From assembly GCA_036986175.1 (NCBI GenBank), contig BTRB01000001.1, positions 1-50,819 on the forward strand: a stretch of DNA of 50,819 nucleotides. Reading direction: 5' to 3'. Positions 16,372-32,044 of this stretch are shown here, piece by piece. A program made the position numbers and the translations under genes. Origin of the DNA: Gammaproteobacteria bacterium. GTDB taxonomy: Bacteria; Pseudomonadota; Gammaproteobacteria; Xanthomonadales; SZUA-36. Each line of letters opens with the position of its first letter. Position 1 is the first letter of the stretch. The notes under the pieces are model-generated. The model made no database searches, was not told the DNA's origin, and saw only the letters and a list, made by a program, of their open reading frames with translations.

Positions 16372-16791
16372 ATAGCAACTCTCTCCACGCTAAACAGAGC
16401 ACGTTAAAAAATATCAATTAACAGGCTAAATCAAGCCGTACGCAGGTAACAAATTATCAAGTGAACAGCACGGCAACTCCTATTAGAATCGTTCGAAGAT
16501 TAGAGAAGGTGTGGCAATGGGGCACAAAAAAATCACTGAAAATCGGCTTTCAAGAGCATTTTTTGTTAGAATCAGTCCTGCTATGTCAGTCTAGAAGGTA
16601 AATTTGTGGCACAAAAAACAGGTAATTTACAATTAATTAACGATTTCTTTTGTCAGTTCTGCGAGAATTACCTGCTATAAGCATGGGTGGGGAAAAACCA
16701 GGCTTGTGAATGTTGACGGACCAGCAGCCTATCAAACAAAAGCAGAGGCCATTTGGCTAATGAAAAATTGCTACGAACCAGCGAGTTGCAT
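16372..16791. promoter_or_regulatory. Long AT-rich non-coding leader upstream of the lipid operon
   Basis: About 420 bp without a credible ORF and visibly more AT-rich than the flanks. It contains an imperfect direct repeat AGAAGGT-N8/9-GGCACAAAAAA. The exact 11-mer GGCACAAAAAA lies at 16521-16531 and 16608-16618. TTAGAATC occurs twice. An inverted repeat CAGGTAATT / AATTACCTG lies at about 16620 and 16665. A 9-nt partial match TTAACAGGC to the GTTAACAGGCCCT motif lies at 16418-16426. Confidence 0.4.
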
Positions 16792-18561
16792 ATGAATACC
16801 GTGCAACCAACGCCCACTAACGAATCATTGCCGGTAAAAATTGCGGGATACACCAATCTTGTAGATGTGCTTGAGTATGCTGCGCAGGGCGACACCGGTT
16901 ATAACTTCTATGATGGCCGCGGTCGTCTTGGAGACGTACTGTCCTATGCAGATTTGCGTGACCAGGCAAAGGTGCTGGCGCGAAAATTGCTCGGCATGGG
17001 TTGTGAGCGCGGTGCGCGGGTCGGTATTATTGCCGAAACCGAGCCGATGTTTCATCGTTTCTTTTTTGCCTGCCAGTATGCTGGCTTGATCCCCGTTGCT
17101 TTGCCGGCCGGCATTCAACTTGGAGCACACGGCGCGTATGTCGGTCAGGTGCGGCGTATGTTGAAAAGCTGTGGTGCATCAATCGTCGTTGCGCCGGATA
17201 CGCACTCTGGTTTTATGGCGGAGGCCGTGCAAGGTCTTGATTTACTGATGGCTGGTAAGCAGGAAGATTTTGATGCGTTGCCAGAGGCAGTAGTGGAATT
17301 TGTACCACTCGGCGCAGATGATCCAGCTTATCTGCAATATACCTCGGGTAGCACCAGTTTCCCGCGTGGGGTGGAGATAACCCAGCAAACCGTATTGAAC
17401 AACCTGGTGGAGATTGCCCTTTACGGACTGAAGTTGACTGCCGAGGACCGTTTTGTATCGTGGTTGCCTTTTTATCATGACATGGGCCTGGTCGGTTTTA
17501 TCCTGGTTCCGTTGATTGGCCAGTTATCCGTGGATTATCTGGGTTCACGTACATTTGCGATGCGTCCAAGACTTTGGCTGAAAATCCTGTCTGATAACAA
17601 GGGTACGATTTCCTCAGCCCCGACATTCGGTTACGCATTGTGTGCAAAGCGTTTGCGGGCTTCAGACGTTGAAACCTATGACCTCAGTAACTGGCGGGCT
17701 GCGTGTGTAGGCGCCGAGAGAATCAGCCCGGAACCTCTGCAGGAATTTGCAGAAATCCTGCAGCCCAGTGGCTTTGATCAGAATGCGTTTGTTGCTTGCT
17801 ACGGCATGGCCGAATGTGTGCTGGCCACCAGTTTCGCACCGTTGGGGGGAGGGCTGAAAGTCGATGTGGTGGACAGGAGTTTGATGGCTGCTACAGGTGA
17901 AGCCAAACCTTCTGACGGAGATATGCTTTCCACTTCACACTATGTTGATTGCGGCAAGCTTTTACCCGGTTTTGAATTTGCAATTATCAATGATGATGGC
18001 GATATACTGGAAGATCGGCACTGCGGCCATATCTTTCTAAAGGGCTCCAGTGTGATGCGCGGATACTACAACGATGAAGAATCCACACGTAAAGTCCTGT
18101 CTGAGGATGGCTGGTTGAATACCGGTGATATTGGGTATCGCATTGGCGATCACCTGGTCATTACCTCCCGTAGCAAGGATGTCATTATCATCAAGGGGCG
18201 TAATATCTGGCCCTATGACCTCGAAGTGCTGGCCCAGCAGACCGATGGTGTCAAGCTCGGGGGCGTGGCGGCGTTTTCAGTAACTGCCGATGGTGAGGAA
18301 GAACAGGCCATACTCGTGGTAGAAACCAAGGAAAGGGATTTACAAAAGCGCCGGCATATCATTGAAGATATCAGTCGCTCCATTCACGCTCATTTTGGAA
18401 TTAGTGTACTGATTGATCTGACCCGGCGTGGGACACTGCCAAGGACGTCTTCCGGTAAGCTTTCCAGATCCCAATCCAAGCAGGATTATCTGGCACGCCA
18501 GACCTTGCAGAAAGTAGAACAGTCAGCGGCCAGGGCCAAGTCCGACAGGCTGACGGCCTGA
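16792..18561 (+). CDS. Fatty acyl-AMP ligase (FAAL) / acyl-ACP synthetase-like adenylating enzyme
   Basis: AMP-binding core motifs are of FAAL flavour: YLQYTSGSTSFPRGVEITQ, WLPFYHDMGLVGF, NTGDIGY, SRSKDVIIIKGRNIWPYDLE. The ORF-track start is TTG 16753; ATG 16792 (MNTVQPT) is more likely. The stop TGA 18559-18561 lies 1 nt before the next gene. Confidence 0.8.
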   Translation: MNTVQPTPTNESLPVKIAGYTNLVDVLEYAAQGDTGYNFYDGRGRLGDVLSYADLRDQAKVLARKLLGMGCERGARVGIIAETEPMFHRFFFACQYAGLIPVALPAGIQLGAHGAYVGQVRRMLKSCGASIVVAPDTHSGFMAEAVQGLDLLMAGKQEDFDALPEAVVEFVPLGADDPAYLQYTSGSTSFPRGVEITQQTVLNNLVEIALYGLKLTAEDRFVSWLPFYHDMGLVGFILVPLIGQLSVDYLGSRTFAMRPRLWLKILSDNKGTISSAPTFGYALCAKRLRASDVETYDLSNWRAACVGAERISPEPLQEFAEILQPSGFDQNAFVACYGMAECVLATSFAPLGGGLKVDVVDRSLMAATGEAKPSDGDMLSTSHYVDCGKLLPGFEFAIINDDGDILEDRHCGHIFLKGSSVMRGYYNDEESTRKVLSEDGWLNTGDIGYRIGDHLVITSRSKDVIIIKGRNIWPYDLEVLAQQTDGVKLGGVAAFSVTADGEEEQAILVVETKERDLQKRRHIIEDISRSIHAHFGISVLIDLTRRGTLPRTSSGKLSRSQSKQDYLARQTLQKVEQSAARAKSDRLTA

Positions 18562-18562
18562 C

Positions 18563-19489
18563 TTGCCGGTACCTCTTTCATCCGTATTCATCACCGGGGC
18601 AACCGGTTTTATCGGGCAACACCTTGTCACCACCCTGCTGGAACAGGGCTATACCGTGCGGGCAATGGTCCGCCCGGGGAAAGTCACGGATGAACGGATA
18701 CCTGCTCTTTGTGAGCAGTTCCCCGTCGGTTTGACCGATGTAGATGGCCTGACAGCCATCGTAGGTGGTTGCGATGCAGTCATTTATTGCGCAGGCAGCG
18801 TCAGGGGCAGAAACCCGGATGATTTTTCAATTGCTAACATCAACGGTGTCAGGGCGATGCTGGAAGCCCTGGGGCGTGTGCCTGAGGCACCGCCATTGCT
18901 GCTGGTATCATCATTGGCCGCGGGTCGCCCACAACTTTCAGACTATTCCTTCAGCAAGCATGCAGGTGAACAGCTGTTGCTGGACAGGCCTTCGCTGGCC
19001 TGGACCATACTTCGCCCGCCAGCTGTTTATGGACCAGGCGACAGGGAAATGCTGCCGGTATTGAAAATGGCGCGCCGCGGTCTGTTGGTTTATGCCGGCC
19101 CGGCTGATCAACGCTTGTCGCTGCTACACGTCGATGATCTTGCCAGGGCAGTGCTAGCCTGGTTGGCGTCATGGCAAAAATGCCTGCACAAGATATACGC
19201 CATTGATGATGGCAGACCCAACGGCTACGACTGGCCGGCCATTGGGGAAGCGGTAAGCGCCGGAAAATATCGGCAACTTAAATTACCCCGCTTATTGCTG
19301 GATGTCACAGCAAGATCAAACTTGATGGTTGCGAAATTAATGGGCTACCGACCCATGCTGACACCAGGGAAAGTCAGGGAGCTGGTGCAAACGGATTGGC
19401 TGGGTGACAACAGTGATTTCACGGCGGCTACGGGATGGAAACCGAATCTGGATTTGCGCGCCGGGGCAGAGCAACTATTTGGAGCATGA
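18563..19489 (+). CDS. NAD(P)-dependent epimerase/dehydratase-family SDR (CerR-like candidate 3-keto reductase)
   Basis: 308-aa ORF with a TTG start 1 nt after the FAAL stop. It has the Rossmann motif VFITGATGFIGQHLV and catalytic YSFSK (YxxxK). It holds the same position between acyl-ACP synthetase and ACP as Caulobacter CerR, as I recall. Confidence 0.65.
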   Translation: MPVPLSSVFITGATGFIGQHLVTTLLEQGYTVRAMVRPGKVTDERIPALCEQFPVGLTDVDGLTAIVGGCDAVIYCAGSVRGRNPDDFSIANINGVRAMLEALGRVPEAPPLLLVSSLAAGRPQLSDYSFSKHAGEQLLLDRPSLAWTILRPPAVYGPGDREMLPVLKMARRGLLVYAGPADQRLSLLHVDDLARAVLAWLASWQKCLHKIYAIDDGRPNGYDWPAIGEAVSAGKYRQLKLPRLLLDVTARSNLMVAKLMGYRPMLTPGKVRELVQTDWLGDNSDFTAATGWKPNLDLRAGAEQLFGA

Positions 19490-19491
19490 AC

Positions 19492-19520
19492 TAGGGCCTG
19501 ATAAGTGTTAACAGGCCCTA
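19492..19520 (+). terminator. Hairpin after the SDR gene (attenuator/terminator-like or REP-like)
   Basis: TAGGGCCTG (19492-19500) pairs with CAGGCCCTA (19512-19520): a 9-bp stem with an 11-nt loop. No U-run follows. The 3' arm is part of the 19-nt repeat. Confidence 0.3.
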
Positions 19521-19521
19521 A
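19503..19521 (+). repeat. 19-nt exact repeat AAGTGTTAACAGGCCCTAA, copy 1
   Basis: It is identical to 35686-35704 in the same orientation, and the flanking bases differ on both sides. It contains the 8-bp palindrome TGTTAACA. Confidence 0.9.
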
Positions 19522-19626
19522 CACAAAATTGACGTGCATTCCTGTCAACCTGCGCTACAATTCCCCAACCTGCAGGTTCCAAGCCTGCGGCTCCAAAACT
19601 GTAGATAGGTCCTGGTGGAGGATTTT

Positions 19627-19899
19627 TTGAAATTATCGACTGAAGCAGTGGGTAGCAAGCTTGCGGAGATCCTGGCTCAATACCTCAGGAAAAACTGGAT
19701 TGACACACCGGCGATCGAGCGGGAAATTACACCGGCGACCAATATGGTGTCTGATTTGCAACTGGATTCATTCCAGGTAATGGAGTTCATGCTGGAGGTG
19801 GAAGATCATTACGATATCGCTATTGACCTCGAAAGCTTGTCCAATGTCCAGACCATTCTAGACCTTGCCGGCGTGGTCATCGCTGTGCATAACGAATGA
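19627..19899 (+). CDS. Acyl carrier protein (phosphopantetheine attachment site)
   Basis: 90-aa ORF from TTG 19627, preceded by GGAGG (19617-19621); the ORF-track start is GTG 19615. The PP-binding motif is DLQLDSFQVMEFMLEVE, with Ser in LDS. The stop at 19897-19899 lies 4 nt before the next ATG. Confidence 0.8.
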   Translation: MKLSTEAVGSKLAEILAQYLRKNWIDTPAIEREITPATNMVSDLQLDSFQVMEFMLEVEDHYDIAIDLESLSNVQTILDLAGVVIAVHNE

Positions 19900-19903
19900 C
19901 GAT

Positions 19904-21073
19904 ATGTCACTTTTTGAGAAATTTGCCGCTGCGAAGCAGCTTAGAGCAGGCCTTGCCAGTGCAGGCGTGGACCCGACCGGCGTCGTGTTTGATACCCTCA
20001 ACTCGGCAACTGAAGGTGTCGTCAAAGGGCGCAGGACAATACTCGCAGGCACCAACAATTACCTTGGCCTGACTTTTAACCAGGAATGTATTGCTGCCGG
20101 CGTGGCTGCGCTTGAATCACAGGGTACCGGCACGACTGGTTCGCGTATGGCCAATGGCAGTTACGCAGCCCACGGTGCGCTCGAAGCAGAACTGGCTGAT
20201 TTTTTCCAGTGTCCCCATGCCATGGTCTTTTCAACGGGTTATACCGCCAATCTGGGCGTACTCACTGCACTACTGGGCAGGGATGATGCAGTCCTGCTGG
20301 ATTCTGATGCCCACGCGAGTCTTTACGATGGCTGCTACATGAGTGGGGCTGGTATTTTCCGCTTCAAGCACAATGATCTGCAAAGCCTGGAACGTCGTCT
20401 CGTACGGCTCAAGGACCGTGCCAGCGGTTGCCTGATCGTTGTTGAAGGTATGTACAGCGTGCTGGGAGATTGTGCTCCTTTGGCAGAATTTGTTGCACTC
20501 AAGGAACGTTTTGGCGCCAGCCTGCTGGTCGATGAGGCACACTCCCTCGGTGTCTACGGTGAGCGTGGTCGTGGAGTCGCCGAGGCGCAGGGCGTACTGG
20601 ATAAGGTTGATTTCATTGTTGGAACGTTCAGCAAAAGTCTGGGTGCAATGGGTGGATTCTGTGCCAGCAGGCACAATGTGTTGGGATTGTTCCGCTATGT
20701 TTCCCGACCATTCATGTTTACCGCGTCCCCCAGCCCGGCAGTGGTGGCTACCACCCGTGAGGCCCTGAGGCAGTTACGCGCGCGCCCTGAGTTAAAAGAA
20801 ACCTTGTGGGCAAATGCAAGACAGCTTTATAGCGGTTTACAGGACCTTGGCTTTGAGCTCGGGCCGGAAGTCAGCCCGGTTGTGGCAGTGCGGTGTAAGG
20901 ACAGGGAAACAGCACTTGCAAACTGGAACCAACTGTTGGAAGCCGGTGTTTACGTCAACATGATGCTGCCCCCGGCAACACCTGACGGTGGCAGCTTCCT
21001 GCGCAGCAGTGTCAGTGCAGCACACACCCCAGAGCAAATCAAAACCATCATCAGCGCATTTAAAGACCTGTAG
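19904..21073 (+). CDS. spt: Serine palmitoyltransferase-like alpha-oxoamine synthase (PLP-dependent)
   Basis: 389 aa from ATG 19904. The motifs NNYLGLTFNQECIAAGVAALESQGTGTTGSRMANGS and the PLP-lysine context GTFSKSLGAMGGF resemble the Sphingomonas SPT motifs as I recall them (GSRMLNGT, GTFSKSVGTVGGF) more than BioF or Kbl. It is linked to FAAL, SDR and ACP. Confidence 0.75.
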   Translation: MSLFEKFAAAKQLRAGLASAGVDPTGVVFDTLNSATEGVVKGRRTILAGTNNYLGLTFNQECIAAGVAALESQGTGTTGSRMANGSYAAHGALEAELADFFQCPHAMVFSTGYTANLGVLTALLGRDDAVLLDSDAHASLYDGCYMSGAGIFRFKHNDLQSLERRLVRLKDRASGCLIVVEGMYSVLGDCAPLAEFVALKERFGASLLVDEAHSLGVYGERGRGVAEAQGVLDKVDFIVGTFSKSLGAMGGFCASRHNVLGLFRYVSRPFMFTASPSPAVVATTREALRQLRARPELKETLWANARQLYSGLQDLGFELGPEVSPVVAVRCKDRETALANWNQLLEAGVYVNMMLPPATPDGGSFLRSSVSAAHTPEQIKTIISAFKDL

Positions 21074-21077
21074 GAGG

Positions 21078-21094: not shown

Positions 21095-21096
21095 GC

Positions 21097-21469
21097 GATT
21101 CTATAAGATTTGCACCATCCGAACGCGGCGACACGGGGTACCTGCCCTCTGAGACACGCATGAACCCATCCATGGGGCTCGGGGCCTGCTCCCGGCAGGC
21201 CACGGTCCCAGAGGGCAGGTACCCCATATCCCCGCTTGGTGTTGGGGATTCTGATGGGGTGGGCAATTGCAAGCAGCGGGCCCGCTTCTCCAACACGAGT
21301 CCGCCCCCAACAAGAATCTACTGAGCCCAGCGGGGATACGGGGGGTGTACTCCCTGAGACCGTGGCCTGCCGGGAGCAGGCCCCGAGCCTACAGGACGTA
21401 CTCGTGGCGTGTCTCTGGGGGTACACCCCCCGTGTCCCCGCAGCAGGATGGTGCAAATCTTATAGAATC
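21097..21469. repeat. 373-bp nested giant imperfect palindrome (MITE-like or structured-RNA-like element)
   Basis: Perfect 24-bp terminal inverted repeats are GATTCTATAAGATTTGCACCATCC (21097-21120) and its reverse complement (21446-21469). A perfect 32-bp internal inverted repeat is GGCTCGGGGCCTGCTCCCGGCAGGCCACGGTC (21176-21207) and its reverse complement (21358-21389). The centre is the 12-bp palindrome AGCGGGCCCGCT (21275-21286). Each arm is itself a hairpin. Confidence 0.85.
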
Positions 21470-21487
21470 GTGTCCAGCGGAACTGAT

Positions 21488-21551
21488 GGCCCAGGCCATG
21501 CTCCCCACCGGTTCCCGGTGGCCCAGGCCAGCTTCTCGACCGGTTCCCGGT
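21488..21551. repeat. Tandem direct repeat, 2 x 32 bp
   Basis: GGCCCAGGCCATGCTCCCCACCGGTTCCCGGT (21488-21519) is followed directly by GGCCCAGGCCAGCTTCTCGACCGGTTCCCGGT (21520-21551). Each unit ends in the small hairpin ACCGG-TTC-CCGGT. The second is followed by the T-rich TTACCTTCTTTC. Confidence 0.8.
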
Positions 21552-21586
21552 CTTACCTTCTTTCACCATCTCTCACTTCCTCCCTC

Positions 21587-22864
21587 CTACATTTTCCGTA
21601 CCAACCCCAACATCAATAGCAGGGTCAGCAATGTGCCCACACTTGCTGCTACACCCGGTCCCGGCAAACCCATAACCGGTGTCAGCACGTAAAACAGGCC
21701 GAGGTAAACCACAACACTTAGCATATAAATGCGCAGGATCTGTGCAACCTTGCCCATGGCGTACGCAGCGGCGCGTAATGGTGAACCCGCGAGCTCGAAG
21801 GTCGCCGCCAACAGCATAAGGGTCAGGAGAGATGCGGCCTCGGTATATTCAGGTCCGATGATTTCAAGAATCGGTGCCGCAGCGGGGATTGACAGCAATA
21901 CGAGCAAGAGTCCTGCAGCTCCCGCTGTCTTGACAGCACGGAAACCGAGTTCATGAAACCCTGCTGCTTTGTTGTGCAAAATACGGGTCAGATCAGGGAA
22001 CAGCACTTCACGCAACATCATGGCCGGTTTGCTTAAGATACTTGAGAAATCGCGCGCCAGCCGGAACATGCCTGCGGCAGCCGGTCCCAGCAGATTGCCT
22101 GCGAGCAGAACGGCAAGATGTTTCGGCAGCAGGTCAATATTGGTCTGCCAGTACACCACGGCAATGAAATGACGGAACTCCCCGCTGGTTTTACCAATCT
22201 CCTTCCAACTGCCTCCTTTCCAGATACTACTGTTGAGATGTCTGTAGAATTCAAGGTGGCCCCGTATGAACAACCATGTATTTTCCAGTACGAACGCGGC
22301 TGCCCAAATGGCGATGAAAATACGTATGTCGGCATCCATGGTCCAGGCAATGGCTACACCGGTGATGCGGATCGCCGGACCTACGGTGTAGAAGACACTG
22401 AGCGCATCAAAGCGGTCATACAGCCGCAAAATTCCATTGGGCGTGTTGCTGACAGTGGTCAGCATCACCAGGCTGTACAGGCTCGCCAGCGATATCATCT
22501 CTGCGTCCCAGTACAGGAAACTACCCGCGAAAGACGCTGCTGAAATGCCCAAAAGCGTGGCTGCCGCGGCGGATGTGAGGTCAATCGCTGTAGTGGTGCG
22601 GAACAGTTGTTTCAGGCCTTCATCTTCACCATTTTCATGCTGTGGAACACCGAACCGTACAATCGCCTCGTAGGTTCTGAAATTCAGGATGCCCCTTACT
22701 GCCAGTACATAGGTGTGTAACAGGATGACCAGTCCAAATTCGGTTGCGGACAAGGCATTTGCCATCAGCGCAGTTGCCGCCAGGTTGAAAATTGCCGCAA
22801 TTCCGCGTCCGCGCAAAACCACACCGAAATTTCTCAACACGCGTCCGGAAACAGCTTTATCCAT
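21587..22864 (-). CDS. MOP/Wzx-type polysaccharide or lipid flippase family membrane protein
   Basis: A polytopic hydrophobic ORF with a Wzx-like N-terminus (VLRNFGVVLRGRGIAAIFNLAATALMANALSATEFG). I place the start at ATG 22864, which overlaps the upstream stop as TGATG. The ORF track extends to 22909. Confidence 0.6.
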   Translation of the reverse strand: MDKAVSGRVLRNFGVVLRGRGIAAIFNLAATALMANALSATEFGLVILLHTYVLAVRGILNFRTYEAIVRFGVPQHENGEDEGLKQLFRTTTAIDLTSAAAATLLGISAASFAGSFLYWDAEMISLASLYSLVMLTTVSNTPNGILRLYDRFDALSVFYTVGPAIRITGVAIAWTMDADIRIFIAIWAAAFVLENTWLFIRGHLEFYRHLNSSIWKGGSWKEIGKTSGEFRHFIAVVYWQTNIDLLPKHLAVLLAGNLLGPAAAGMFRLARDFSSILSKPAMMLREVLFPDLTRILHNKAAGFHELGFRAVKTAGAAGLLLVLLSIPAAAPILEIIGPEYTEAASLLTLMLLAATFELAGSPLRAAAYAMGKVAQILRIYMLSVVVYLGLFYVLTPVMGLPGPGVAASVGTLLTLLLMLGLVRKM

Positions 22865-23835
22865 CAGCGGAAAGCCCCCTGCCGGTGGAGCTTCCACAAC
22901 AATGGCCAAGCGAAGATCAAAGGGTGTTTAAGCTGCCGGGCACTTGGCTCGATATAAATACCGGTATGCCGTTCAACTTTCCATAGCAGGTACTGTAGTG
23001 GTCCATTGAAGGTGAACGCAGCTTTGAAAAGCCGTAGCATGGATAACAACTTGCCCTGCACACGGCGTAGCCACCAGCTAACTGAGGAGAATTTCCTGGC
23101 GACGGTACTGCTTTGGTTGCAATACACATCGTGCTGCGTGGTGGTTGACAGGTTTGCGCCGCTCCCGGCCAGCGACCGGGCAATCCCGTCATACCAGGCA
23201 GGATTAAAGTCGTATAGTGATTCAGCACGATTGCTGCTTTCCGTACGCAGCTCACAACGGTAGGTCTGTGAAAGGCCACTGGTCCATAATTCCCGGCTAC
23301 TGAACCGGTCGGGCAGGGAGGGTATCACGTGTTTCACAAAAGTAGCTGAGGCTGTTCCAAATGCATTGACCAAGGCCATTTTGGTTGCCTCGTCACGGGC
23401 AAACAGTACCTCGCAGGGCTGTGCAAAACGTGCCCAGAAATAGGAGTGAAAATCATGCGCCATGGCGTGGCAAAACCGGTCCAGCGTCAGCAGTGCATAT
23501 TTTGCCCGCATATCACTACTTTCTGTACCGGGTCCTGTTACCTTGTGGTGGATGTGGTACACATTGGGTGGAAGCAAGCGGCACATCCATCCTTGCCAGG
23601 GAGAATCCAGCGTACGGTAATCCTCCACCAGCACATAGAAATCCAGCATGGTGTCGCGCTTGCCGCGCAGCCAGGAGCCGTAGACCAGTATGGCCAGCAA
23701 AGCATCACCGTGTTGCTGTTTTATTTTGCTGAGAAGAGGTTCGAGACTGGCATAATCGTCCAGGTTTGCCTGGCACCCGTGGTCCACGCCGCTACCCAGT
23801 TCCACGGGTTTTTGTGGCTTATCATTTGGGTGCAT
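22864..23835 (-). CDS. Tam41/Mmp37-like nucleotidyltransferase (candidate lipid-phosphate cytidylyltransferase)
   Basis: The NTase signature is ILVYGSWLRGKRDTMLDFYVLV (GS ... DxD). Downstream blocks resemble my memory of the Tam41/Mmp37 profile: NVYHI, AKYALLTLDRF, YFWARFAQPCEVLF, SRELWTSGLSQTYRCELR. The start is uncertain: ATG 23835 overlaps the upstream gene by 14 nt, and other in-frame ATGs occur up to 23904. Confidence 0.5.
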   Translation of the reverse strand: MHPNDKPQKPVELGSGVDHGCQANLDDYASLEPLLSKIKQQHGDALLAILVYGSWLRGKRDTMLDFYVLVEDYRTLDSPWQGWMCRLLPPNVYHIHHKVTGPGTESSDMRAKYALLTLDRFCHAMAHDFHSYFWARFAQPCEVLFARDEATKMALVNAFGTASATFVKHVIPSLPDRFSSRELWTSGLSQTYRCELRTESSNRAESLYDFNPAWYDGIARSLAGSGANLSTTTQHDVYCNQSSTVARKFSSVSWWLRRVQGKLLSMLRLFKAAFTFNGPLQYLLWKVERHTGIYIEPSARQLKHPLIFAWPLLWKLHRQGAFR

Positions 23836-25051
23836 AAGCCCCCCGGGTGGCGCCGAAAATGGCATAAGCCCTGGCGTTCGGACCGGTTGCGACATCATCT
23901 TCACTCAGCCACGAGGTCAACGGCCCCCGCGTTAATCTGACCACAAGCGCAAACAACAGACGGAGCACAAGAATCACTGTGGTAAAAACAGTCCAGAACG
24001 TGACGGCAACAAAGCCCCAGTCAGGTCTGGCAATAACGATGCTCAGGGTCAGCAGGATCAGATTGGGATTGCGCCTCGCGGTGATCAGCCTGAACCATGC
24101 ATCGGAAGGACGCCAGGTGAAAATACTACAGTTTCCAAGCAGTGGAAAAATCCCTTCAACAACCCTTCCGACGATGTAAGCAACAATGATAAGCCAGTAC
24201 ATCTGACCCTGGTCAAAACCTATCACTGGTTGAAAATCTTGCAGTGACATACCCCAGTAAATGTACCAGAACGGTGGGTGAAACAGGTCAATGGCATGGT
24301 CGAACAGATGGCCAAACTTGCTGGATTTAATGGTTACACGGGCCAGTTTTCCATCAACGGTGTCGAGAAACGTCATCAACCAACCAGCCAGCAAGCCCCA
24401 GCCGTACTGTCCTTTCCAGAAGAAGTAAGCAGCAGCGATAACCAGCAATAGTCCCGTGCTGGTGACCATATTTGGCGTTATACCGGTATTTGCACACACA
24501 TGTACCATGCGTTTGGCCGGGCGGGGCCAGACAAATTTGGTGACCAGGTCGGTGATTCCACGGTAAGCATTGCCGTACAACTTATTTTCAAGTTCGGTTT
24601 TTCGTTGCGCAGAAATGGTTTCCAGCAAGGGTGTTGTCGACCTGCGCAGGCTTTCATCAAAGGCCGCCATGTCGCCGGGATGAATCCTCTGCAGGCCATG
24701 GGGCATCTCCCGGCTTCGTTCACGGAAATACGCCAGCATCGCGGGCAGGCGATGGCTATCGATAAAAGCTGCTGCAGCAGAATTATCACCCGGATGTGAC
24801 AACACGGCATCCGGGTGGGCTAAAACACCACTGAGGGTGCGGTTCTCGAACAGAAAATTTCCATTGATCAACAATATTCGGCTGTCTTGGGGAATGTTGT
24901 CTTTGTCTATATCATCCAGCCATCGGATGTCGCTCAAATCACCGCTGGATCCCATGCTGATCTCCAGCAACTGACGTTGCAGGCGGCGGGTAGAATCCAG
25001 TCCCCAAAGACGGGTGGAGGAGAGTTCAGAAACAGCTGCGTAGACGGTCAT
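23822..25051 (-). CDS. CDP-alcohol phosphatidyltransferase-family membrane enzyme with a ~190-aa cytoplasmic N-terminal extension
   Basis: It has a perfect family motif DxxDGxxARx8GxxxDxxxD: FLDTVDGKLARVTIKSSKFGHLFDHAIDLF. Several TM segments follow. The N-terminal domain (VYAAVSELSSTRLWGL...) looks like a degenerate NTP-transferase fold lacking the GxGxR loop. Confidence 0.85.
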   Translation of the reverse strand: MTVYAAVSELSSTRLWGLDSTRRLQRQLLEISMGSSGDLSDIRWLDDIDKDNIPQDSRILLINGNFLFENRTLSGVLAHPDAVLSHPGDNSAAAAFIDSHRLPAMLAYFRERSREMPHGLQRIHPGDMAAFDESLRRSTTPLLETISAQRKTELENKLYGNAYRGITDLVTKFVWPRPAKRMVHVCANTGITPNMVTSTGLLLVIAAAYFFWKGQYGWGLLAGWLMTFLDTVDGKLARVTIKSSKFGHLFDHAIDLFHPPFWYIYWGMSLQDFQPVIGFDQGQMYWLIIVAYIVGRVVEGIFPLLGNCSIFTWRPSDAWFRLITARRNPNLILLTLSIVIARPDWGFVAVTFWTVFTTVILVLRLLFALVVRLTRGPLTSWLSEDDVATGPNARAYAIFGATRGAYAPK

Positions 25052-25149
25052 GCTATATTGCGGCTCATATCAAAGATGGGAGTGGTTGGATGGCGGGTTT
25101 TCGATGCCAACGCCAGCATGGATTATACATTGACCGGTAAAAAAAACAG

Positions 25150-26022
25150 ATGCGTCTGATTCACCTGACCGATCCACATCTCAGCAACCTTGACGGGCTA
25201 AAGCTCTCAGCGTTATGGGGCAAGCGCTGGTCCGGTTATGTCTCGTGGCGCAAGAATCGGCAAAAGAAATACCTGCCGGGTGTGCTGGAAAAACTGTGTG
25301 CCGCTGTGAAAGCTGAAAATGCGGATCAGATCCTGTTGACCGGGGACCTGGTCCAAATCGGCCTGGAAAGCGAGATTGGGCAGGCAGCGGAGTGGCTTGC
25401 GGATCTCGGCTCTGCAGACCGGGTTATGCTGGTGCCGGGTAACCATGATGTATATGCCCGGGGAAGCGCTGCAGTGGTTTGTGATTCCTGGGCTGAATAT
25501 CTGTTTCATGGCGGGCAGCCCGGCCACTTCCCGGTGCTGCGAAAACTGGGAAAGCTTAGTCTGATCGGGCTGTCTACCGCCTGTGCCAGCCCGCTGTTCA
25601 TGGCCACTGGAAAACTCGATACGGGTCAGCTTAAAGAACTGGCCCGGTTGCTGGAGACCGCCGCCGCTGAGCAACAACTGACCTGTTTACTGATCCATCA
25701 CCCACCGTTGCCGCGAATGACCAAGTGGCGCAAGGCCCTTGCCAATGCACAGGCTTTGCAGGATGTCCTCGAACGCTTTGTGCCGCCGTTGATTTTTCAC
25801 GGCCACCTGCACCATAACCGTGAGCAGCAATGGGGGAGTTCACGCATTTTTTGTACCGCTGCAGCATCCAGTGTCAGTGATGCTTCATACCGTGTGATCG
25901 ATATTGAAGACGCTGGTGAATGTTGGTCCTTACACATGGCACTGAAGTCAATTGCTGTTGAAAGCGCGGGTGGGGTGGAGTTTCCGGCGGTTGATGAGCA
26001 GAATTGGTTGGTACCCAAATAA
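25150..26022 (+). CDS. Calcineurin-like metallophosphoesterase (CpdA/GpdQ-like)
   Basis: All the canonical blocks are present: LIHLTDPHL, LLTGDLVQIG, LVPGNHD, LIHHPP, FHGHLHHN. Confidence 0.8.
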   Translation: MRLIHLTDPHLSNLDGLKLSALWGKRWSGYVSWRKNRQKKYLPGVLEKLCAAVKAENADQILLTGDLVQIGLESEIGQAAEWLADLGSADRVMLVPGNHDVYARGSAAVVCDSWAEYLFHGGQPGHFPVLRKLGKLSLIGLSTACASPLFMATGKLDTGQLKELARLLETAAAEQQLTCLLIHHPPLPRMTKWRKALANAQALQDVLERFVPPLIFHGHLHHNREQQWGSSRIFCTAAASSVSDASYRVIDIEDAGECWSLHMALKSIAVESAGGVEFPAVDEQNWLVPK

Positions 26023-26040
26023 ACAGCTTGAATCCCGGCC

Positions 26041-27114
26041 TCACAAGCTCCGGTGGCGAATCGCTGCTATCGCCAGCGCGAGCAGGATAAATGGTGGTGT
26101 AAGGATGACCAGTGAAGGGTTCATACCCAATATTCCGGCCAGTTGGCCACTCAGCTGCTGCACCAGGTAAAAACCGATTCCTATCAAACCCCCAAGCATA
26201 ACCCGCTGGCTTGCGGAAACCGACCGGACTGAATTGAGCACGAAAGGCAGCGCCAACAAAGCCATTGCCAACAGGCTGGGCAACAGGCTGATCTGCTGCC
26301 AGAGAACAATCTCATATTCATGGGTATCAAGTTGATTGCGTCTGAGGTTCGCAATGGTTCTGACCAGGTCATTGGGTGCCAACGCCTCAAGCGGCAACAC
26401 CAGGACAGATGCTTGTTCGGCGGACAGCAGGCCTTTCCATAACATGCTTTCCTGCGTCGTCTCCTGTACGGTCGTTTTCTGCAGTTCGCTAAGCACCACG
26501 CCGTTTAACAGCCAGTTATTATCGCCGGCATAATCTGCACTGGATGCCTGTGTTAATTGTGATAAACGGCCTTTGGAATCGGCGGTATAGATTTCGATAT
26601 CAGCCAACGTGCGGTCAAACCTCACTTCATTGACACGGATGAAAAAAGAGCCGTTGCGGGTCCAGAATGCACCTGTACTGCCGGGGCCTTTTTCCGTGCC
26701 CTGCAGGGACTTGCCACGCAGCTGTGCAGCTTCTCTTTCAAACCTGGGCACGACAGAAAACTGCAGGATTGTGATAGAAATACCGAGAAACACCGCCAGC
26801 ACTGTTACGGTTTGCGCAATACGCCGCTTGGACAGGCCGCTGGTGCGAATAGCAATCAGCTCGCGACTATTGGCCATGGCACCCAAACCCAATAACCCGC
26901 CCAGCAGTGCGGTGACCGGCAGCAGTTCAACAATGCGTTTGGGTGTGGTCAAAAAAACGACCATAAAGGCGTCCGGCAAGTTGAAGTTGCCGCTGCCGAC
27001 TTGCTCCAGTTCTTCAGCAAGTGCCATGAAGCTGAACAAGGCGAGTAATAGCAACAAAACCGGTAGGATGCCGGCCAGGAACTGCTGCATGATGTAGCGG
27101 TCAATCTTCAGCAT
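26041..27114 (-). CDS. lptG: LPS export ABC transporter permease LptG
   Basis: 357 aa from ATG 27114 (MLKIDRYIMQQFLAGILP), of the YjgP/YjgQ family. It overlaps the lptF stop by 14 nt. The ORF-track extension to 27291 is unlikely to be translated. Confidence 0.85.
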   Translation of the reverse strand: MLKIDRYIMQQFLAGILPVLLLLLALFSFMALAEELEQVGSGNFNLPDAFMVVFLTTPKRIVELLPVTALLGGLLGLGAMANSRELIAIRTSGLSKRRIAQTVTVLAVFLGISITILQFSVVPRFEREAAQLRGKSLQGTEKGPGSTGAFWTRNGSFFIRVNEVRFDRTLADIEIYTADSKGRLSQLTQASSADYAGDNNWLLNGVVLSELQKTTVQETTQESMLWKGLLSAEQASVLVLPLEALAPNDLVRTIANLRRNQLDTHEYEIVLWQQISLLPSLLAMALLALPFVLNSVRSVSASQRVMLGGLIGIGFYLVQQLSGQLAGILGMNPSLVILTPPFILLALAIAAIRHRSL

Positions 27115-28174
27115 GATCCTTCCTGCTCTTCCTGCGGATGACCGGAAAGTACAGCCCGGCCACGAGCAGGCCAAGCAATCCGGACACCCACCAGATAGAG
27201 TCGGCGCTGCCCTGTTCCACCCAGCTGCGGCTGACATCCAGCAAGTTGAAGTAAACGGCATATATCCCAAGCGCCAACAACATCTTGGCATAACGCCCCT
27301 GCCGCGGGCGACTGCGGCTCAGCGGAATGGCCGCCAACGCCAGTAACAGGGCAGACAGGGGCGTGGATATACGCCATTGAAATTCTGCCCGCTCTTCTGC
27401 GGCGGGAGATCGCCTTAATGCGCTGGTTGGCGCCGATTTGACCTTGTAGCCCGGTGCTTGTGGGGTTTGTACGGGTATCCACAAAATAAAAGAGCCGAAT
27501 TGTGCCGAAAAGTCAGTGCCATCCCGAACCTTCTTGAACACCTGTGCATCAATGAGTTGCAGGCTGTGAAACTCCGGTTTGGCAAAATAGTTGAAAACAC
27601 CCTTCGAGGCTGTTATTACCTGCAGGTCGTTACCCTTGCGCGTACGGATAAAGATACCGTCCAGATCACTGCCGTTTTCAGCAATGTTTTCAATGAAAAC
27701 CGTACGCTCGCTCTCGCTGAATGTGTAAAACCGCGCTTCCCGAATGCGGCCAGTTTCCGCAGAGACCTCGGCGGCGGCCTTGACCTTGTACGATTGCGCA
27801 TATGCCCACGGCCGCACCCAGCCCGATAACAATGCAACCACGACGGCGACTACAAGCGACAGACGCATAAGCGGGCGCAGCAGGCGGGCCTCGGAGATAC
27901 CGCCTGCACGCATGGCGTAGATTTCTGAATCGGTGTATAAGCGTCCCAGGCCGGTCATGACGGCCAGGAACAGGCTGAGTGGCAGCAATACGTCGAGTGA
28001 TATCAGGGATTTGAGAACAGTCAGTTGTGCGACCTCACCGACTTGTAAAAGGCCCGCATCGGCATCTACAAGAAACCGGCTGAGGCTGTAGGTGATGAAA
28101 ATAACCAGCAGCGCTGTGCAAATCACCAGCAATGGTTGCACAACCTCCCTGATCAGGTAACGGTCAATAATCAT
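27101..28174 (-). CDS. lptF: LPS export ABC transporter permease LptF
   Basis: 357-aa ORF starting MIIDRYLIREVVQPLLVICTALLVIF, of the YjgP/YjgQ family. It sits directly upstream of lptG as in E. coli. Confidence 0.85.
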   Translation of the reverse strand: MIIDRYLIREVVQPLLVICTALLVIFITYSLSRFLVDADAGLLQVGEVAQLTVLKSLISLDVLLPLSLFLAVMTGLGRLYTDSEIYAMRAGGISEARLLRPLMRLSLVVAVVVALLSGWVRPWAYAQSYKVKAAAEVSAETGRIREARFYTFSESERTVFIENIAENGSDLDGIFIRTRKGNDLQVITASKGVFNYFAKPEFHSLQLIDAQVFKKVRDGTDFSAQFGSFILWIPVQTPQAPGYKVKSAPTSALRRSPAAEERAEFQWRISTPLSALLLALAAIPLSRSRPRQGRYAKMLLALGIYAVYFNLLDVSRSWVEQGSADSIWWVSGLLGLLVAGLYFPVIRRKSRKDHAED

Positions 28175-28265
28175 ATTTGTGCAGGTTTCGGCTTTTCATT
28201 TCACACTGTGGTTGCCAGTAGTTGTTATGATCGGGCAGCTTGGTACCTTTCAGCAAGAGTTTTGT

Positions 28266-28760
28266 ATGCTAAAAACACTCCTTCGTTGTCAAATTGTACT
28301 ACTTGCCGTGATGGCCCCTCCCGCCGGTGCATCATCGCCGGCAAACCTCGTCATCGAAACGGTCAGTATCAGCGCAGATGAAGCTTACGAGGATATTCAG
28401 CCCGGTATCCTGCATTTTAACGGTAATTTCACTATGCATAGTCGCGACTGGCAACTGGAATCCGTGCACGCAACAGTTTATGGCCAGCCTGACAGACCGG
28501 ACGAAGTATATCTTAAAGGTTCGCCCGCGCGTTTTCTGATCAACCGCAATCAGGGTGATGGGCAAAGCACGGTGGAAGCTGCGGCTCCGGCGGTGGAATA
28601 TCAGCGTTCCACAAATATGCTGAAATTATCCGGTGGCGCTGTGCTCAAGCTGGACCGTGAAGAAATCAGGAGTGAGGTAATCGAATATAATATCAGCACT
28701 GACCGCTACCGGGCCGCCGGCGCTGATGGGGTGATAATTGAAGTCCCGCCCAGAAACTGA
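28266..28760 (+). CDS. Secreted OstA/LptA-fold protein (second LptA-like paralogue)
   Basis: 164 aa from ATG 28266 with a signal peptide MLKTLLRCQIVLLAVMAPPAGA. The mature part aligns by eye with E. coli LptA block by block: ISADEA...LHFNGNFTM, VYLKGSPARFL, AAPAVEYQRSTNMLKLSGGAVL, IRSEVIEYNI. It is divergent from lptF. The canonical lptA is at 41347-42006. Confidence 0.6.
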   Translation: MLKTLLRCQIVLLAVMAPPAGASSPANLVIETVSISADEAYEDIQPGILHFNGNFTMHSRDWQLESVHATVYGQPDRPDEVYLKGSPARFLINRNQGDGQSTVEAAAPAVEYQRSTNMLKLSGGAVLKLDREEIRSEVIEYNISTDRYRAAGADGVIIEVPPRN

Positions 28761-28784: not shown

Positions 28785-29513
28785 CTAGGTCGGCCACTGA
28801 CTAACGACATCTGGCGCAGCAGCGAAATCGTTCGCATCATCGACTTCGCACCAGCTTAACCCGTGGATAGGACAAATGCCGACAATGCCCTCACTGGCAA
28901 GCTGGTCAATAGCGGACAAGTACCAGAGTTTTAGAGCATTTACCTGGTCCATCATTTCCTCGAGTTTAAGTGCAAAAGCCTCTGCACCCGCCTGGTTGAA
29001 TACCATCAGGCCAATACTTTCACCGTTCACCAGACTGATATCCAGTTGTTTGCTTACTTTTATCAGGCGATCTCCATCCGCGATGATCTTCATATCGTCC
29101 AGGTCAAAATGAGGCTTGGTGTCGGTAGCGAGGGTGATCGGATAGCCTTTGTCGCAGGCCAACAGGCGCTGTAAAACGGCTGCTTCGAACAGCGTATCAC
29201 CATTCATCAGCACAAATGGCCCGTCCATTTCAGAACGCGCTTCCCAACAGGTACCAAGGTTATCTGTGTGGGCGTACATCGGATTATGCAGTGTCCACAC
29301 CTTGATGCCGGTAACTTTGTCCACGATCGCATCGACCATTTCATAGGCAAACCCGGTAACAACGACCACTTCATCAATATCGCACTGCGCAATCTGGCTC
29401 AATTGCCATTCCAGTATGGAAATGCCGTGAAGTGGCAGGCAGCATTTGGCCAGGTTTGATGTTAGAGGCATCAGTCGACGACCCTGGCCTGCACTCAAAA
29501 TGATAGCTTTCAA
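28785..29513 (-). CDS. LicC/IPCT-type phospho-alcohol (or sugar-phosphate) nucleotidyltransferase
   Basis: 242-aa ORF with a TTG start preceded by AAGGA. The N-terminus is KAIILSAGQGRRLMPLT (GxGxRL loop). Overall length and the C-terminal WCEVDDANDF resemble small cytidylyltransferases of the NTP_transf_3 type. Confidence 0.65.
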   Translation of the reverse strand: MKAIILSAGQGRRLMPLTSNLAKCCLPLHGISILEWQLSQIAQCDIDEVVVVTGFAYEMVDAIVDKVTGIKVWTLHNPMYAHTDNLGTCWEARSEMDGPFVLMNGDTLFEAAVLQRLLACDKGYPITLATDTKPHFDLDDMKIIADGDRLIKVSKQLDISLVNGESIGLMVFNQAGAEAFALKLEEMMDQVNALKLWYLSAIDQLASEGIVGICPIHGLSWCEVDDANDFAAAPDVVSQWPT

Positions 29514-29647: not shown

Positions 29648-31252
29648 ATGTTGATCGATCTGGAAAAATTCGCTCAGGATATGATGCTTGATGCAGAGGT
29701 TTGCATTGTTGGCGCTGGCGCTGCGGGTGTAGCTCTTGCCCGGGACCTGATGCATGCCGGTCGTGATATATGCCTGCTGGAAGGCGGAGGCATGGACTAT
29801 GAAGACGCCACCCAATCGTTGTTTGACGGCAAAAATATCGGTATGGAATATTACGATCTGGACCATGCCCGCTTGCGTTTTTTCGGCGGCACAACCAATA
29901 TCTGGGGCGGCCGCAACATTCCACTGGATCCAATCGATTTTGAGAAACGTGATTGGGTGCCACACAGTGGCTGGCCAATCACATTCGATGATCTGCAGGC
30001 TTATTACCGTATTGCACACAATTCGCTTGAACTGGGTGAGTTTGACTACGAGGCCGGCAATTGGCAGAAGCTGGGACTGCAACCCATTGGATTTGACCCG
30101 CAAGAGATCACAACGCGGTTTTGGCGCTTTGATGATCTTGCCGAGCGCTTCAACAGTCGCCGCAGTGATGACCTGATCAAATCTGAGAATGTGCGTATTG
30201 TCCTGCATGCCAATACGGTCGGTTTGCAGGCGGCTGAGAATGCTGCAAGCGTCACCCGCCTGGATGCGACTACCCTGCAGGGCAGAAAGTTGCAGGTTAC
30301 CGCGCGTCATTTTGTGCTCGCCTGCGGTGCGATTGAAAATGCCCGTTTGCTGCTGGCTTCCAATACGGTTGAGGCTTCTGGAATCGGCAATCAGCACGAT
30401 CAGCTTGGGCGTTATTTCATGGAGCACCCCCATGGCAGAGTTGCCCATATCGAAACAGAAGATCCGGCAGCCTTCTGGGCATTGTATCGCAAGCGTTATC
30501 CGGCAACTGATGTGCCGGTTGCGCCGGCACTGGTATTGCCGCCGTCTTTACAGAAACGCCTCGGCATTCTTAACAGTGCAGCCACATTCAAACTTCAGAA
30601 AGACCCGGCCAGGGGTGCCACAGTAAGCAAACGGGTGTACCTGAATCTGAAACACAGTTTGTCACCATCTCGATCCGGAAGGCGCTTGTGGCATGCCTGG
30701 CGGGGTACGCAAGATTGGTTGCAGCGCCACGTATCAATGCCCCTGTTGCGTTTTGGTACCAGGGTAAACCGTATGGGCCTGTACGTGATTGCCCGCGCTG
30801 AGCAGGCGCCTAACCCGCACAGCCGGGTATGCCTTTCTAGTGAAATGGATGCACTTGGCTACCCCAGGGCAGACCTGGACTGGCAGCTTTGTGACCTGGA
30901 TAAGGAGACCATGTTGCAGTTTGGCAAAACGCTGGAGCGGGAGTTTGACCGGCTTGGCTTGGGCAAGGTAACAACTTACCAGTGGCTGGAGGACGGTACA
31001 CCTGAGTGGCCGGTTGATGCCAGTGTGGGTAATCACCCCATTGGCGGCTATCACCACATGGGTACAACCCGCATGAGTAACTCCCCGAAGACCGGCGTTG
31101 TGGATGCCAACTGCACAGTCCATGGCTACCAGAACCTGCATATCGCCGGTAGCTCGGTGTTTACAACCGGTGGCTGGGCTAATCCTACTTTAACGCTGCT
31201 GGCGTTGACGCACAGGCTCGGGGATCATCTGAACAGTTTATTGACCCGATAA
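29648..31252 (+). CDS. GMC-family FAD-dependent oxidoreductase
   Basis: 534 aa from ATG 29648. The FAD fingerprint is VCIVGAGAAGVALA. The C-terminal GMC blocks are HPIGGYHHMGTTRMS, VVDANCTVHGYQNLHIAGSSVFTTGGWANPTLT. Confidence 0.8.
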   Translation: MLIDLEKFAQDMMLDAEVCIVGAGAAGVALARDLMHAGRDICLLEGGGMDYEDATQSLFDGKNIGMEYYDLDHARLRFFGGTTNIWGGRNIPLDPIDFEKRDWVPHSGWPITFDDLQAYYRIAHNSLELGEFDYEAGNWQKLGLQPIGFDPQEITTRFWRFDDLAERFNSRRSDDLIKSENVRIVLHANTVGLQAAENAASVTRLDATTLQGRKLQVTARHFVLACGAIENARLLLASNTVEASGIGNQHDQLGRYFMEHPHGRVAHIETEDPAAFWALYRKRYPATDVPVAPALVLPPSLQKRLGILNSAATFKLQKDPARGATVSKRVYLNLKHSLSPSRSGRRLWHAWRGTQDWLQRHVSMPLLRFGTRVNRMGLYVIARAEQAPNPHSRVCLSSEMDALGYPRADLDWQLCDLDKETMLQFGKTLEREFDRLGLGKVTTYQWLEDGTPEWPVDASVGNHPIGGYHHMGTTRMSNSPKTGVVDANCTVHGYQNLHIAGSSVFTTGGWANPTLTLLALTHRLGDHLNSLLTR

Positions 31253-32044
31253 AATCTTCTCGGCCAATTTCTGGTCTGCGATGGAGTCGACATCTACTGC
31301 AGCCCTGGCATGGTCAAGTCGCACGTAGCCGATACTGCAACCGGCAGCTGTTGACAGTGCCTGTAGCGCATCATCCAGGGTCAGTCGTCTGAACACATAG
31401 CGCAGTAAGGCGACGAAGCCAAAGCGGCGTGCGATCCGCCAGGGATGTTTGCGGTCAGCTTCTGCCTGGCGCCAGAAAGACAGTGCCTTCATACCGTTCG
31501 GATTCAGTGCGGCGAACAGGTTACTGCCACAAAACTGTCCGTTCGAGAATTTTAAAACAGTGCGCTTCGATTCCGGCCAGGCAGCCTTGACCAGGGAATA
31601 TGGCACCAGGCCTATGACAAAATCGTGCTTTGATTTGAGTGCCTGAGCCTGTGCCTGTGTGCAGAAATCATCCACGATTTCGCCTGTCACCAGTGCATGG
31701 TCGCCGGCAGTCAGCAGTGCGGGGTAGTGGTTGAGCTTCTCAAGCGCCAACAATGCGCTGGAGGCAGGTCCCGTCGCCGGTGCCAGCCATTGAAAATCCG
31801 GGTCTTGCAGAAGTTGTTGTAAAGCCTGGCTTTGGTTGAGCACATTGGCTGATGGCCCACAGATCACCCCGCCTTGTGCATGTCTGCTGTTATTGATGGC
31901 CTCCATCACACGCCGTAGGGAAGGTTTGCCTGCGACCGGCACCAGCACGCTGGCCGGAATCGCGAAAGCGTGGCTCAGTGCGCTACCGCCGGGGCGCTCC
32001 CCTGCGAGAATGATCGAGCGGAACGGTGCGTTTTGTTTGGTCAT
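31238..32044 (-). CDS. MobA-like NTP-transferase family protein
   Basis: 268-aa ORF with N-terminus RSIILAGERPGGSALSHAFAIPASVLVPVAGKPSL, typical of the NTP_transf_3 / MobA-like fold. It is the last gene of the GT, GNAT-like, NTP-transferase operon. Its end overlaps the GMC gene end by 15 nt (convergent). Confidence 0.55.
   Translation of the reverse strand: MTKQNAPFRSIILAGERPGGSALSHAFAIPASVLVPVAGKPSLRRVMEAINNSRHAQGGVICGPSANVLNQSQALQQLLQDPDFQWLAPATGPASSALLALEKLNHYPALLTAGDHALVTGEIVDDFCTQAQAQALKSKHDFVIGLVPYSLVKAAWPESKRTVLKFSNGQFCGSNLFAALNPNGMKALSFWRQAEADRKHPWRIARRFGFVALLRYVFRRLTLDDALQALSTAAGCSIGYVRLDHARAAVDVDSIADQKLAEKILSGQ

Follow-up and report, generated by a model that had tools for sequence, protein, structure and literature searches.

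The 50,819-nt stretch analysed here (the window) is the entire contig BTRB01000001.1 of a metagenome-assembled genome (MAG; GCA_036986175.1), and at 22864-25051 it carries two overlapping minus-strand genes encoding a Tam41-like nucleotidyltransferase and a cytidine diphosphate (CDP)-alcohol phosphotransferase. Our analysis indicated, with a probability of about 75%, that this pair forms the head-group module (cpgA/cpgC) of a phosphosphingolipid cluster orthologous to the Caulobacter CC_1152-CC_1168 region, in an uncultured marine Lysobacterales-like gammaproteobacterium. Orthology to Pseudomonas luteola genes, the folds, the catalytic residues, the translational coupling and the synteny were established here, and the pathway steps were derived by analogy with Caulobacter genetics and with the biochemistry of CpgD. 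The pair is not new, as its relation to Tam41 and the link with a CDP-alcohol phosphotransferase had already been noted in 2022-2024. The sole feature beyond the literature is the tight coupling of cpgA and cpgC in kinase-less clusters, seen in two large clades of Gammaproteobacteria.

The frame for reading the pair comes from published work on Caulobacter. CpgB (CCNA_01218/CC_1160) is a ceramide kinase with a DAGK domain, which also phosphorylated diacylglycerol (DAG) in vitro (bioRxiv 10.1101/2023.05.01.538943). When CCNA_01219/CC_1161 (CpgC) was deleted, ceramide-1-phosphate was kept and ceramide phosphoglycerate (CPG) was lost; when CCNA_01217/CC_1159 (CpgA, described by a 'PgsA domain') was deleted, CPG was kept and its diphosphoglycerate form, CPG2, was lost (PMC9393093; PMC11324152). 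The role of CpgA in the conversion of CPG to CPG2 is known from Caulobacter genetics only (PMC9393093). CpgD (CCNA_01210/CC_1152) is a cytidine triphosphate (CTP):phosphoglycerate cytidylyltransferase; its product, CDP-glycerate, is presumed to serve CpgA as donor (PMC12275187). CC_1159 has a cytoplasmic domain at its N terminus as well as transmembrane helices, and homologues of CC_1161 from alpha-, beta-, gamma- and deltaproteobacteria contain Tam41/Mmp37 IPR015222 (S1 Text, PMC11324152). An earlier reading of the window from its letters (the sequence-only reading) had regarded a second lipid cytidylyltransferase inside a ceramide locus as unusual. This view was not supported, since the two genes are cpgA and cpgC orthologues and the Tam41 domain of the CC_1161 homologues was published in 2024.

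The pair, the two parts of its phosphotransferase and the gene that follows it are:

23822..25051, minus strand: cpgA-like gene, corresponding to Caulobacter CC_1159/CpgA, for a 409-aa CDP-alcohol phosphotransferase of two domains (PF01066, P. luteola orthologue, AF2299 profile match)
24488..25051, minus strand: CpgA N-terminal cytoplasmic domain, residues ~1-188, a cytidylyltransferase-like fold without GxGxR (AF2299 profile alignment, Foldseek match to IPCT)
24287..24364, minus strand: CpgA catalytic motif D230xxD233GxxA237R238x8G247xxxD251xxxD255 (read from the translation)
22864..23835, minus strand: cpgC-like gene, corresponding to Caulobacter CC_1161/CpgC, for a 323-aa nucleotidyltransferase of Tam41 fold (P. 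luteola QEU29244.1, Tam41 profile and Foldseek matches)
21587..22864, minus strand: MOP/Wzx-type flippase, CC_1166-like (Pfam Polysacc_synt, E=1.7e-5; probable start ATG 22864)

These three minus-strand genes, cpgA, cpgC and the flippase, are joined by chained overlapping stop and start codons. Reading of the first junction bore out the 14-nt overlap given by the sequence-only reading: the cpgC ATG at 23835, preceded by a GGGGGG run, lies within the final cpgA codons, and the cpgA TGA stands at 23824-23822. At the second junction the probable flippase start, ATG 22864, overlaps the cpgC stop as TGATG, which makes the three genes one translationally coupled unit. Within 22864-22909, this ATG is a likelier flippase start than TTG 22909. 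The arrangement was compared with other genomes in a scan with an 11-sequence CpgC alignment, in which each GTDB species was represented by one genome; at least 581 species had a relative, and the best 80 loci were kept with ±10 kb around cpgC. Immediately upstream of cpgC stood cpgA in 47 loci, and in 36 of the 80 the flippase came next after cpgC. Exactly the gene order of the window recurred in GCA_024277815.1, a 72%-identical relative, with a cpgA/cpgC overlap of 17 nt.

Orthology to the Caulobacter genes was reached through P. luteola, in which QEU29244.1 (FOB45_16340) is the CC_1161 orthologue and FOB45_16330 the CC_1159 orthologue (table S2F, PMC11324152). QEU29244.1 belongs to the 90% cluster of P0201, and P0201 matched the window nucleotidyltransferase at E=1e-48. 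The proteins of the cluster on the fetched contig that encodes exactly QEU29244.1 (L001) were then run by tblastn against the window. CpgC of P. luteola matched with 33% identity (E=5e-55), and CpgA matched over its full length (residues 1-390) with 36% identity (E=4e-84). The P. luteola CpgD, so labelled from an NTP_transferase Pfam match and its position and not from the CC_1152 row of table S2F, matched 28785-29513 with 45% identity (E=5e-66). Further matches were obtained for the CC_1153-like NTP_transf_3 protein at the corresponding position (40%, E=2.5e-46), the 384-aa gene at the bCerS position (50%, E=4.5e-130), AasR (46%, E=1.1e-164), LptF2 (35%, E=3.2e-46) and LptG2 (31%, E=9.3e-38). 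For P. luteola CpgB, the HIT protein, the Asp/Arg hydroxylases and the Elm1-like glycosyltransferase, tblastn gave no match in the window.

The window CpgC falls inside the CpgC family tree, and by sequence it belongs to the CC_1161 orthologue group; the window CpgA, similar over its full length including the N-terminal domain, likewise belongs by sequence to the CC_1159 group. In the maximum-likelihood CpgC tree, the window was placed in a well-supported 37-row clade (99/95) of MAGs labelled Lysobacterales, Wenzhouxiangellaceae and Steroidobacteraceae together with the cultured Elongatibacter sediminis (L026). With Caulobacter CpgC the window protein shares its family, through QEU29244.1, the relation to Tam41/Mmp37 IPR015222, and the neighbours spt, cpgA, lptF2G2 and cpgD. 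However, the window cpgC has no adjacent cpgB and is coupled directly to cpgA upstream and to the flippase downstream, and its product is only about 33% identical to the P. luteola member. The window CpgA resembles Caulobacter CpgA in its PF01066 motif, in its N-terminal cytoplasmic domain joined to a membrane domain, in the adjoining CC_1158-like metallophosphoesterase, and in its full-length similarity to the P. luteola orthologue; it differs in that some near relatives of the window have no cpgA at all.

The CpgC-like protein is a remote but real homologue of Tam41, as judged from its sequence family and its predicted structure. No Pfam family matched it at E<=0.01, and its sole match at any level was Tam41_Mmp37 (PF09139, E=0.068), with 12.9 bits against a gathering cut-off of 24, a cut-off exceeded by two other members of the family, P0135 (34.3 bits) and P0209 (37.2 bits). 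A single-sequence phmmer search with this protein against PDB gave no match, so the Tam41 link became visible only by family profile and structure comparison. A profile built from 82 diverse CpgC family members matched Tam41 of S. pombe (6IG2/6IG4) in PDB at E=4.7e-7 and Tam41 of Firmicutes (7ECD) at E=1.7e-3, with generic nucleotidyltransferases next. The AlphaFold model, built on an alignment, had a predicted local distance difference test score (pLDDT) of 90.7 and a predicted template modelling score (pTM) of 0.88. Its best five Foldseek matches in PDB were all Tam41 (6IG2, 6IG4, 7ECD; E=1e-8 to 5e-7, probability 1.0, template modelling (TM) score 0.45-0.57), and aminoglycoside nucleotidyltransferases ranked after them. 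Thus, the Tam41 likeness proposed by the sequence-only reading held in both the profile search and the structure comparison, although the direct Pfam score was below threshold.

The active site supports the same assignment. The motif reads G53-S54-x10-D65-F-Y67 with one invariant Asp; the GS and one Asp of the GS...DxD signature described earlier are therefore there, but the DxD is not. Tam41 itself keeps a single one of the three canonical nucleotidyltransferase acidic residues and holds CTP with basic residues (PMC11646218), and the single acidic residue of CpgC strengthens its assignment to Tam41. In the 82-member profile alignment, the invariant K112, R136, Y192, R197 and E199 were aligned with identical residues of SpTam41, and E195 stood against an Asp; the basic residues K112, R136, R197, K271 and K286 are all invariant. 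CpgC and Tam41 also have in common a nucleotidyltransferase domain followed by a helical second domain. On the other side, identity to 6IG2/6IG4 and 7ECD was 11-16%, the window protein has an additional conserved C-terminal block (KAAFTF...LWKIERHSG...PLLFAWPLLW), and its genetic context would point to ceramide phosphate rather than phosphatidate as substrate. From the fold and the active site, we argue that CpgC may bind CTP and a lipid phosphate, and by analogy its product would be a CDP-ceramide-type intermediate. Clustered at 90% identity the family has 3,040 clusters, and at 50% identity it has 1,042 representatives, nearly all labelled 'hypothetical'.

The phosphotransferase was recognized more directly. 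It matched Pfam PF01066 (CDP-OH_P_transf) with 39.1 bits over a gathering cut-off of 22 and belongs to that family, and its motif, perfect as the sequence-only reading had described it, reads D230-TV-D233-G-KL-A237-R238-x8-G247-x3-D251-x3-D255, with all motif residues invariant across 59 homologues. A profile of these 59 homologues matched Archaeoglobus AF2299 (4O6M) at E=3.4e-13 over query positions 13-283, spanning both domains. The AlphaFold model (pLDDT 90.9) had AF2299 as its top Foldseek match (~390 columns, E=1.5e-10) and also matched AF2299 N-domain fusions and the bifunctional IPCT-DIPPS 4MND (E=3e-8); the matches to 4O6N, 4O6M and 4MND extended over the full length of these structures. 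The N-terminal domain alone gave a weak match to IPCT 2XME (probability 0.95). In this respect, the resemblance of a degenerate NTP-transferase domain of about 190 residues to fused IPCT/DIPPS enzymes, suggested earlier, was confirmed by profile and Foldseek alike, and the domain is conserved. Where GxGTRL is expected, the window has AAVSELSSTRLWGL and the family consensus is GxSPxxLWGL, W16 and R23 being the only invariant residues of the segment. As the GxGxR/K signature is missing, the domain is probably not catalytic. CpgA shares with 4O6M and 4MND a two-domain build, in which a cytoplasmic domain of cytidylyltransferase-like fold is fused to a CDP-alcohol phosphotransferase of six helices, but identity is ~16%, the N-terminal domain is without GxGxR, and the active cytidylyltransferase (CpgD-like) is encoded by a separate gene.

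It is very hard to regard the pair as housekeeping glycerophospholipid enzymes that merely adjoin ceramide genes, the Tam41-like protein being a second CDP-DAG synthase and its partner a PgsA/PIPS-type phosphotransferase. Bacterial Tam41 (7ECD) does make CDP-DAG, CpgB accepts DAG in vitro, and the best NCBIfam matches of CpgA were AIP and PIP synthase models. However, these scores (50 and 44 bits) were far under the cut-offs (180 and 170), a DIPP synthase match was likewise sub-threshold, and the PgsA/PssA equivalog models did not match CpgA at E<=0.01, so the phosphotransferase does not fall among those housekeeping enzymes. Furthermore, cpgC lies within 10 kb of ceramide genes in 73 of the 80 loci, the Caulobacter mutants lose CPG and CPG2 only, and the operon is linked to a flippase gene as well as to Lpt paralogues.

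The tight linkage of the two genes bears on a second explanation, in which CpgC makes CDP-ceramide and CpgA uses it as a donor onto glycerate or phosphoglycerate, as PgsA does with CDP-DAG. The 14-nt overlap and the 47 loci with cpgA directly upstream would fit such a route, as would a 757-aa CpgA-CpgC fusion in the 50%-identity library (P0127, 49% identical to the window CpgA) and the supply of CDP-DAG by mitochondrial Tam41 to CDP-alcohol phosphotransferases (PMC7018664). Nevertheless, the Caulobacter cpgA deletion still makes CPG (PMC9393093; PMC11324152). The cluster also has its own putative CDP-glycerate synthase (CpgD-like), several relatives retain cpgC without cpgA, and no mention of 'CDP-ceramide' was found in the literature searched. 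In addition, the nearest structures of CpgA, AF2299 and IPCT-DIPPS, reportedly take a soluble CDP-alcohol donor, and the lipid-donor PgsA and PSS structures were far poorer Foldseek matches (E>0.4). We therefore consider this route rather improbable. The same library held a 594-aa fusion of a MobA-like NTP_transf_3 domain with CpgC (P0250). As P0127 and P0250 have one representative each, a frameshift artefact is possible; otherwise they are Rosetta-stone links.

The genes around the pair are consistent with a role of cpgA and cpgC in sphingolipid synthesis:

16753..21073, plus strand: ceramide core, namely aasR (AasR-type fatty acyl-AMP ligase), cerR (CerR-type SDR), acpR and spt (NCBIfam Spt 600 bits, fatty acyl-AMP ligase 697 bits, SDR and ACP matches)
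25150..26022, plus strand: metallophosphoesterase, CC_1158-like, divergent from cpgA (Pfam Metallophos, E=5e-15)
26041..28174, minus strand: LptG2 and LptF2 paralogues, export module (Pfam LptF_LptG twice)
28179..28760, plus strand: LptA-like periplasmic protein, export module (Pfam LptD_N)
28785..29513, minus strand: CpgD-like LicC/IMPCT-like cytidylyltransferase, CC_1152-like, probable CDP-glycerate synthase (Pfam NTP_transferase, NTP_transf_3)
29585-31252: GMC oxidoreductase
31238..32044, minus strand: CC_1153-like MobA/CofC-type nucleotidyltransferase (Pfam NTP_transf_3)
32057..33202, minus strand: bCerS-like GNAT ceramide synthase, CC_1154-like (Pfam Acetyltransf_1)
33229-35679: 816-aa glycosyltransferase

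This sphingolipid block at 16753-35679 (~19 kb) carries the same set of genes as the CC_1152-CC_1168 region of Caulobacter crescentus, and its gene content, with the ceramide core and an Spt match of 600 bits, agrees with the ceramide-type locus recognized by the sequence-only reading. Similar company was found elsewhere: within ±10 kb of cpgC, the phosphoesterase was present in 66 of the 80 loci, cpgA in 60, cpgD in 52 and cpgB in 20. The CpgD-like protein matched LicC 1JYK, IMPCT 4JD0 and similar structures in PDB, Caulobacter CpgD not being among the matches. A tblastn alignment hinted that its gene might extend upstream of the TTG start, which was rejected because an in-frame stop directly precedes TTG 29513. 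The canonical kdsD-kdsC-lptC-lptA-lptB-rpoN block (39123-44052) begins ~3.5 kb past the sphingolipid block, so the two Lpt gene sets are near neighbours. Outside the block, a 1,575-aa protein that combines three glycosyltransferase modules (GT1, GT2, GT1) is encoded at 6301-11028 on the minus strand, upstream of a PBP1b gene.

By analogy with Caulobacter, the pathway would start with the phosphorylation of ceramide to ceramide-1-phosphate by a kinase encoded outside the window, either elsewhere in the genome or as the membrane DgkA. CpgC, peripherally membrane-bound like Tam41, would then convert ceramide-1-phosphate to CPG, most plausibly by taking cytidine monophosphate (CMP) from CTP and passing through a CDP-ceramide-type intermediate. 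The CpgD-like enzyme would make CDP-glycerate, from which CpgA would move phosphoglycerate to the lipid, releasing CMP and giving the di-phosphoglycerate ceramide. Finally, the flippase and the LptF2G2/LptA-like proteins may export the lipid to the outer membrane. A phosphoglycerate head group is more likely than phosphoethanolamine, and the analogy with ceramide phosphoethanolamine drawn by the sequence-only reading was not supported. That reading had put forward two models as alternatives, in one of which the cytidylyltransferase makes a CDP-alcohol that the phosphotransferase puts on ceramide, and in the other the Tam41-like enzyme activates a lipid phosphate. Each corresponds to a proposed step of the CPG2 pathway, and they are not alternatives. 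The first resembles the supply of CDP-glycerate by CpgD to CpgA, except that the Caulobacter acceptor is CPG and not ceramide (PMC12275187); the second matches the step proposed in the literature for CpgC, which acts on ceramide-1-phosphate, possibly with activation by CTP.

Several points weigh against the assignment of the pair to a Caulobacter-type module, the first of which concerns the ceramide kinase. In Caulobacter, cpgB sits between cpgA and cpgC, but it is absent from that place in the window, which therefore lacks the adjacent cpgB that characterizes the operon of the CC_1161 group. A DAGK-type kinase (PF00781 or CpgB) was not found anywhere in the window by Pfam, by tblastn or by a CpgB hidden Markov model (HMM), in agreement with the sequence-only reading, which had seen no ceramide-kinase candidate there. 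The HMM was built from 22 CpgB open reading frames of the fetched loci (21 loci, both P. luteola contigs counted), and at E<=1 it gave no match in the window or in the remaining fetched loci, all frames included. Furthermore, cpgB was absent within ±10 kb in all 52 fetched loci of two clades, the 37-row clade of the window and a second, 15-row gammaproteobacterial clade. The order cpgA-cpgB-cpgC occurred in 11 fetched loci, from deltaproteobacteria, Nitrospirota, Ectothiorhodospiraceae and P. luteola.

Elsewhere the position of cpgB within the cluster is fluid, as relocated CpgB-type kinases were seen in some gammaproteobacterial clusters, at L042:3002-3949, L051:125-1144, L058:109-1155 and L064:4477-5382, three of these four loci being labelled Pseudomonadales. 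In L042 and L064 the kinase directly follows the CC_1153-like gene, and L051 and L058 have it as the first gene read, just before the hydroxylase. In two Nitrospirales MAGs (L066, L071) the order was cpgA-cpgB-cpgC-cpgA, with two cpgA paralogues as flanks. Two candidates for the missing kinase of the window were rejected. The CpgA N-terminal domain is also found in clusters that have a kinase, and its fold is cytidylyltransferase-like, and the N-terminal region of the 816-aa glycosyltransferase was dismissed because the CpgB HMM was empty in every frame of the window.

One could propose from the missing kinase that CpgA puts phosphoglycerate from CDP-glycerate directly on the 1-OH of ceramide, like ceramide phosphoethanolamine synthase, and that CpgC acts at a later or different step. 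Both cpgD and cpgA are present, as this would require, and no CpgB-type kinase was seen in the window or in the 52 loci of the two clades. In a homologue search with the cluster-borne CpgB of L042, the named matches were Pseudomonadales, Gammaproteobacteria or Pseudomonadota MAGs and none was labelled Lysobacterales. However, a kinase gene missing within 10 kb may still lie elsewhere in the genome; in Sphingomonas and Nitrosomonas the sphingolipid genes are dispersed (PMC11324152). Moreover, CpgC shows equally strong conservation here and in the kinase-bearing clades, which argues for the same substrate. Ceramide is phosphorylated by DgkA, a membrane enzyme of Gram-negative bacteria, so that a dedicated kinase may not be needed and DgkA is a plausible stand-in. 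Taken together, direct transfer to ceramide appears quite improbable.

The second point against a Caulobacter-type module is that nine loci had no cpgA. Five of them were near relatives of the window (CpgC 64-71% identical) that also lacked the flippase and kept cpgC, cpgD and the phosphoesterase, so the coupling of cpgA to cpgC is not obligatory. Third, the cluster of the window adds the GMC oxidoreductase and the 816-aa glycosyltransferase and has no HIT protein, and its final head group may for this reason differ from Caulobacter CPG2. Fourth, the comparison with Caulobacter was an indirect one, through P. luteola and published tables, and for both the CpgC and the CpgA steps the putative reaction was derived by analogy. 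It appears unlikely that the pair is a self-contained liponucleotide module, with a Tam41-like enzyme making CDP-ceramide and an AF2299-type phosphotransferase consuming it, or that ceramide enters without a CpgB-type kinase.

Among the close relatives without cpgA, one (L006:3665-6106) encodes an 813-aa TonB-dependent-receptor-like barrel (Plug and TonB_dep_Rec_b-barrel) between cpgD and the LptA-like gene, and the four others (including L007, L009 and L010) have a gap of similar size at that place. This barrel might act as a partner in the outer membrane for the export of sphingolipids.

With the pair assigned to the cpgA/cpgC module, the recognition of CpgC as a structural relative of Tam41 with a Tam41 active site strengthens the hypothesis of CTP activation and makes it directly testable. 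The natural variants, i.e., kinase-less and cpgA-less clusters and the CpgA-CpgC and NTP_transf_3-CpgC fusions, can guide the biochemistry. CPG and CPG2 are anionic sphingolipids that allow Caulobacter to live when lipid A is missing and that polymyxin/colistin targets in this organism, and the module is widespread, in at least 581 GTDB species and ~1,040 clusters at 50% identity, mostly from uncultured marine or sediment Gammaproteobacteria.

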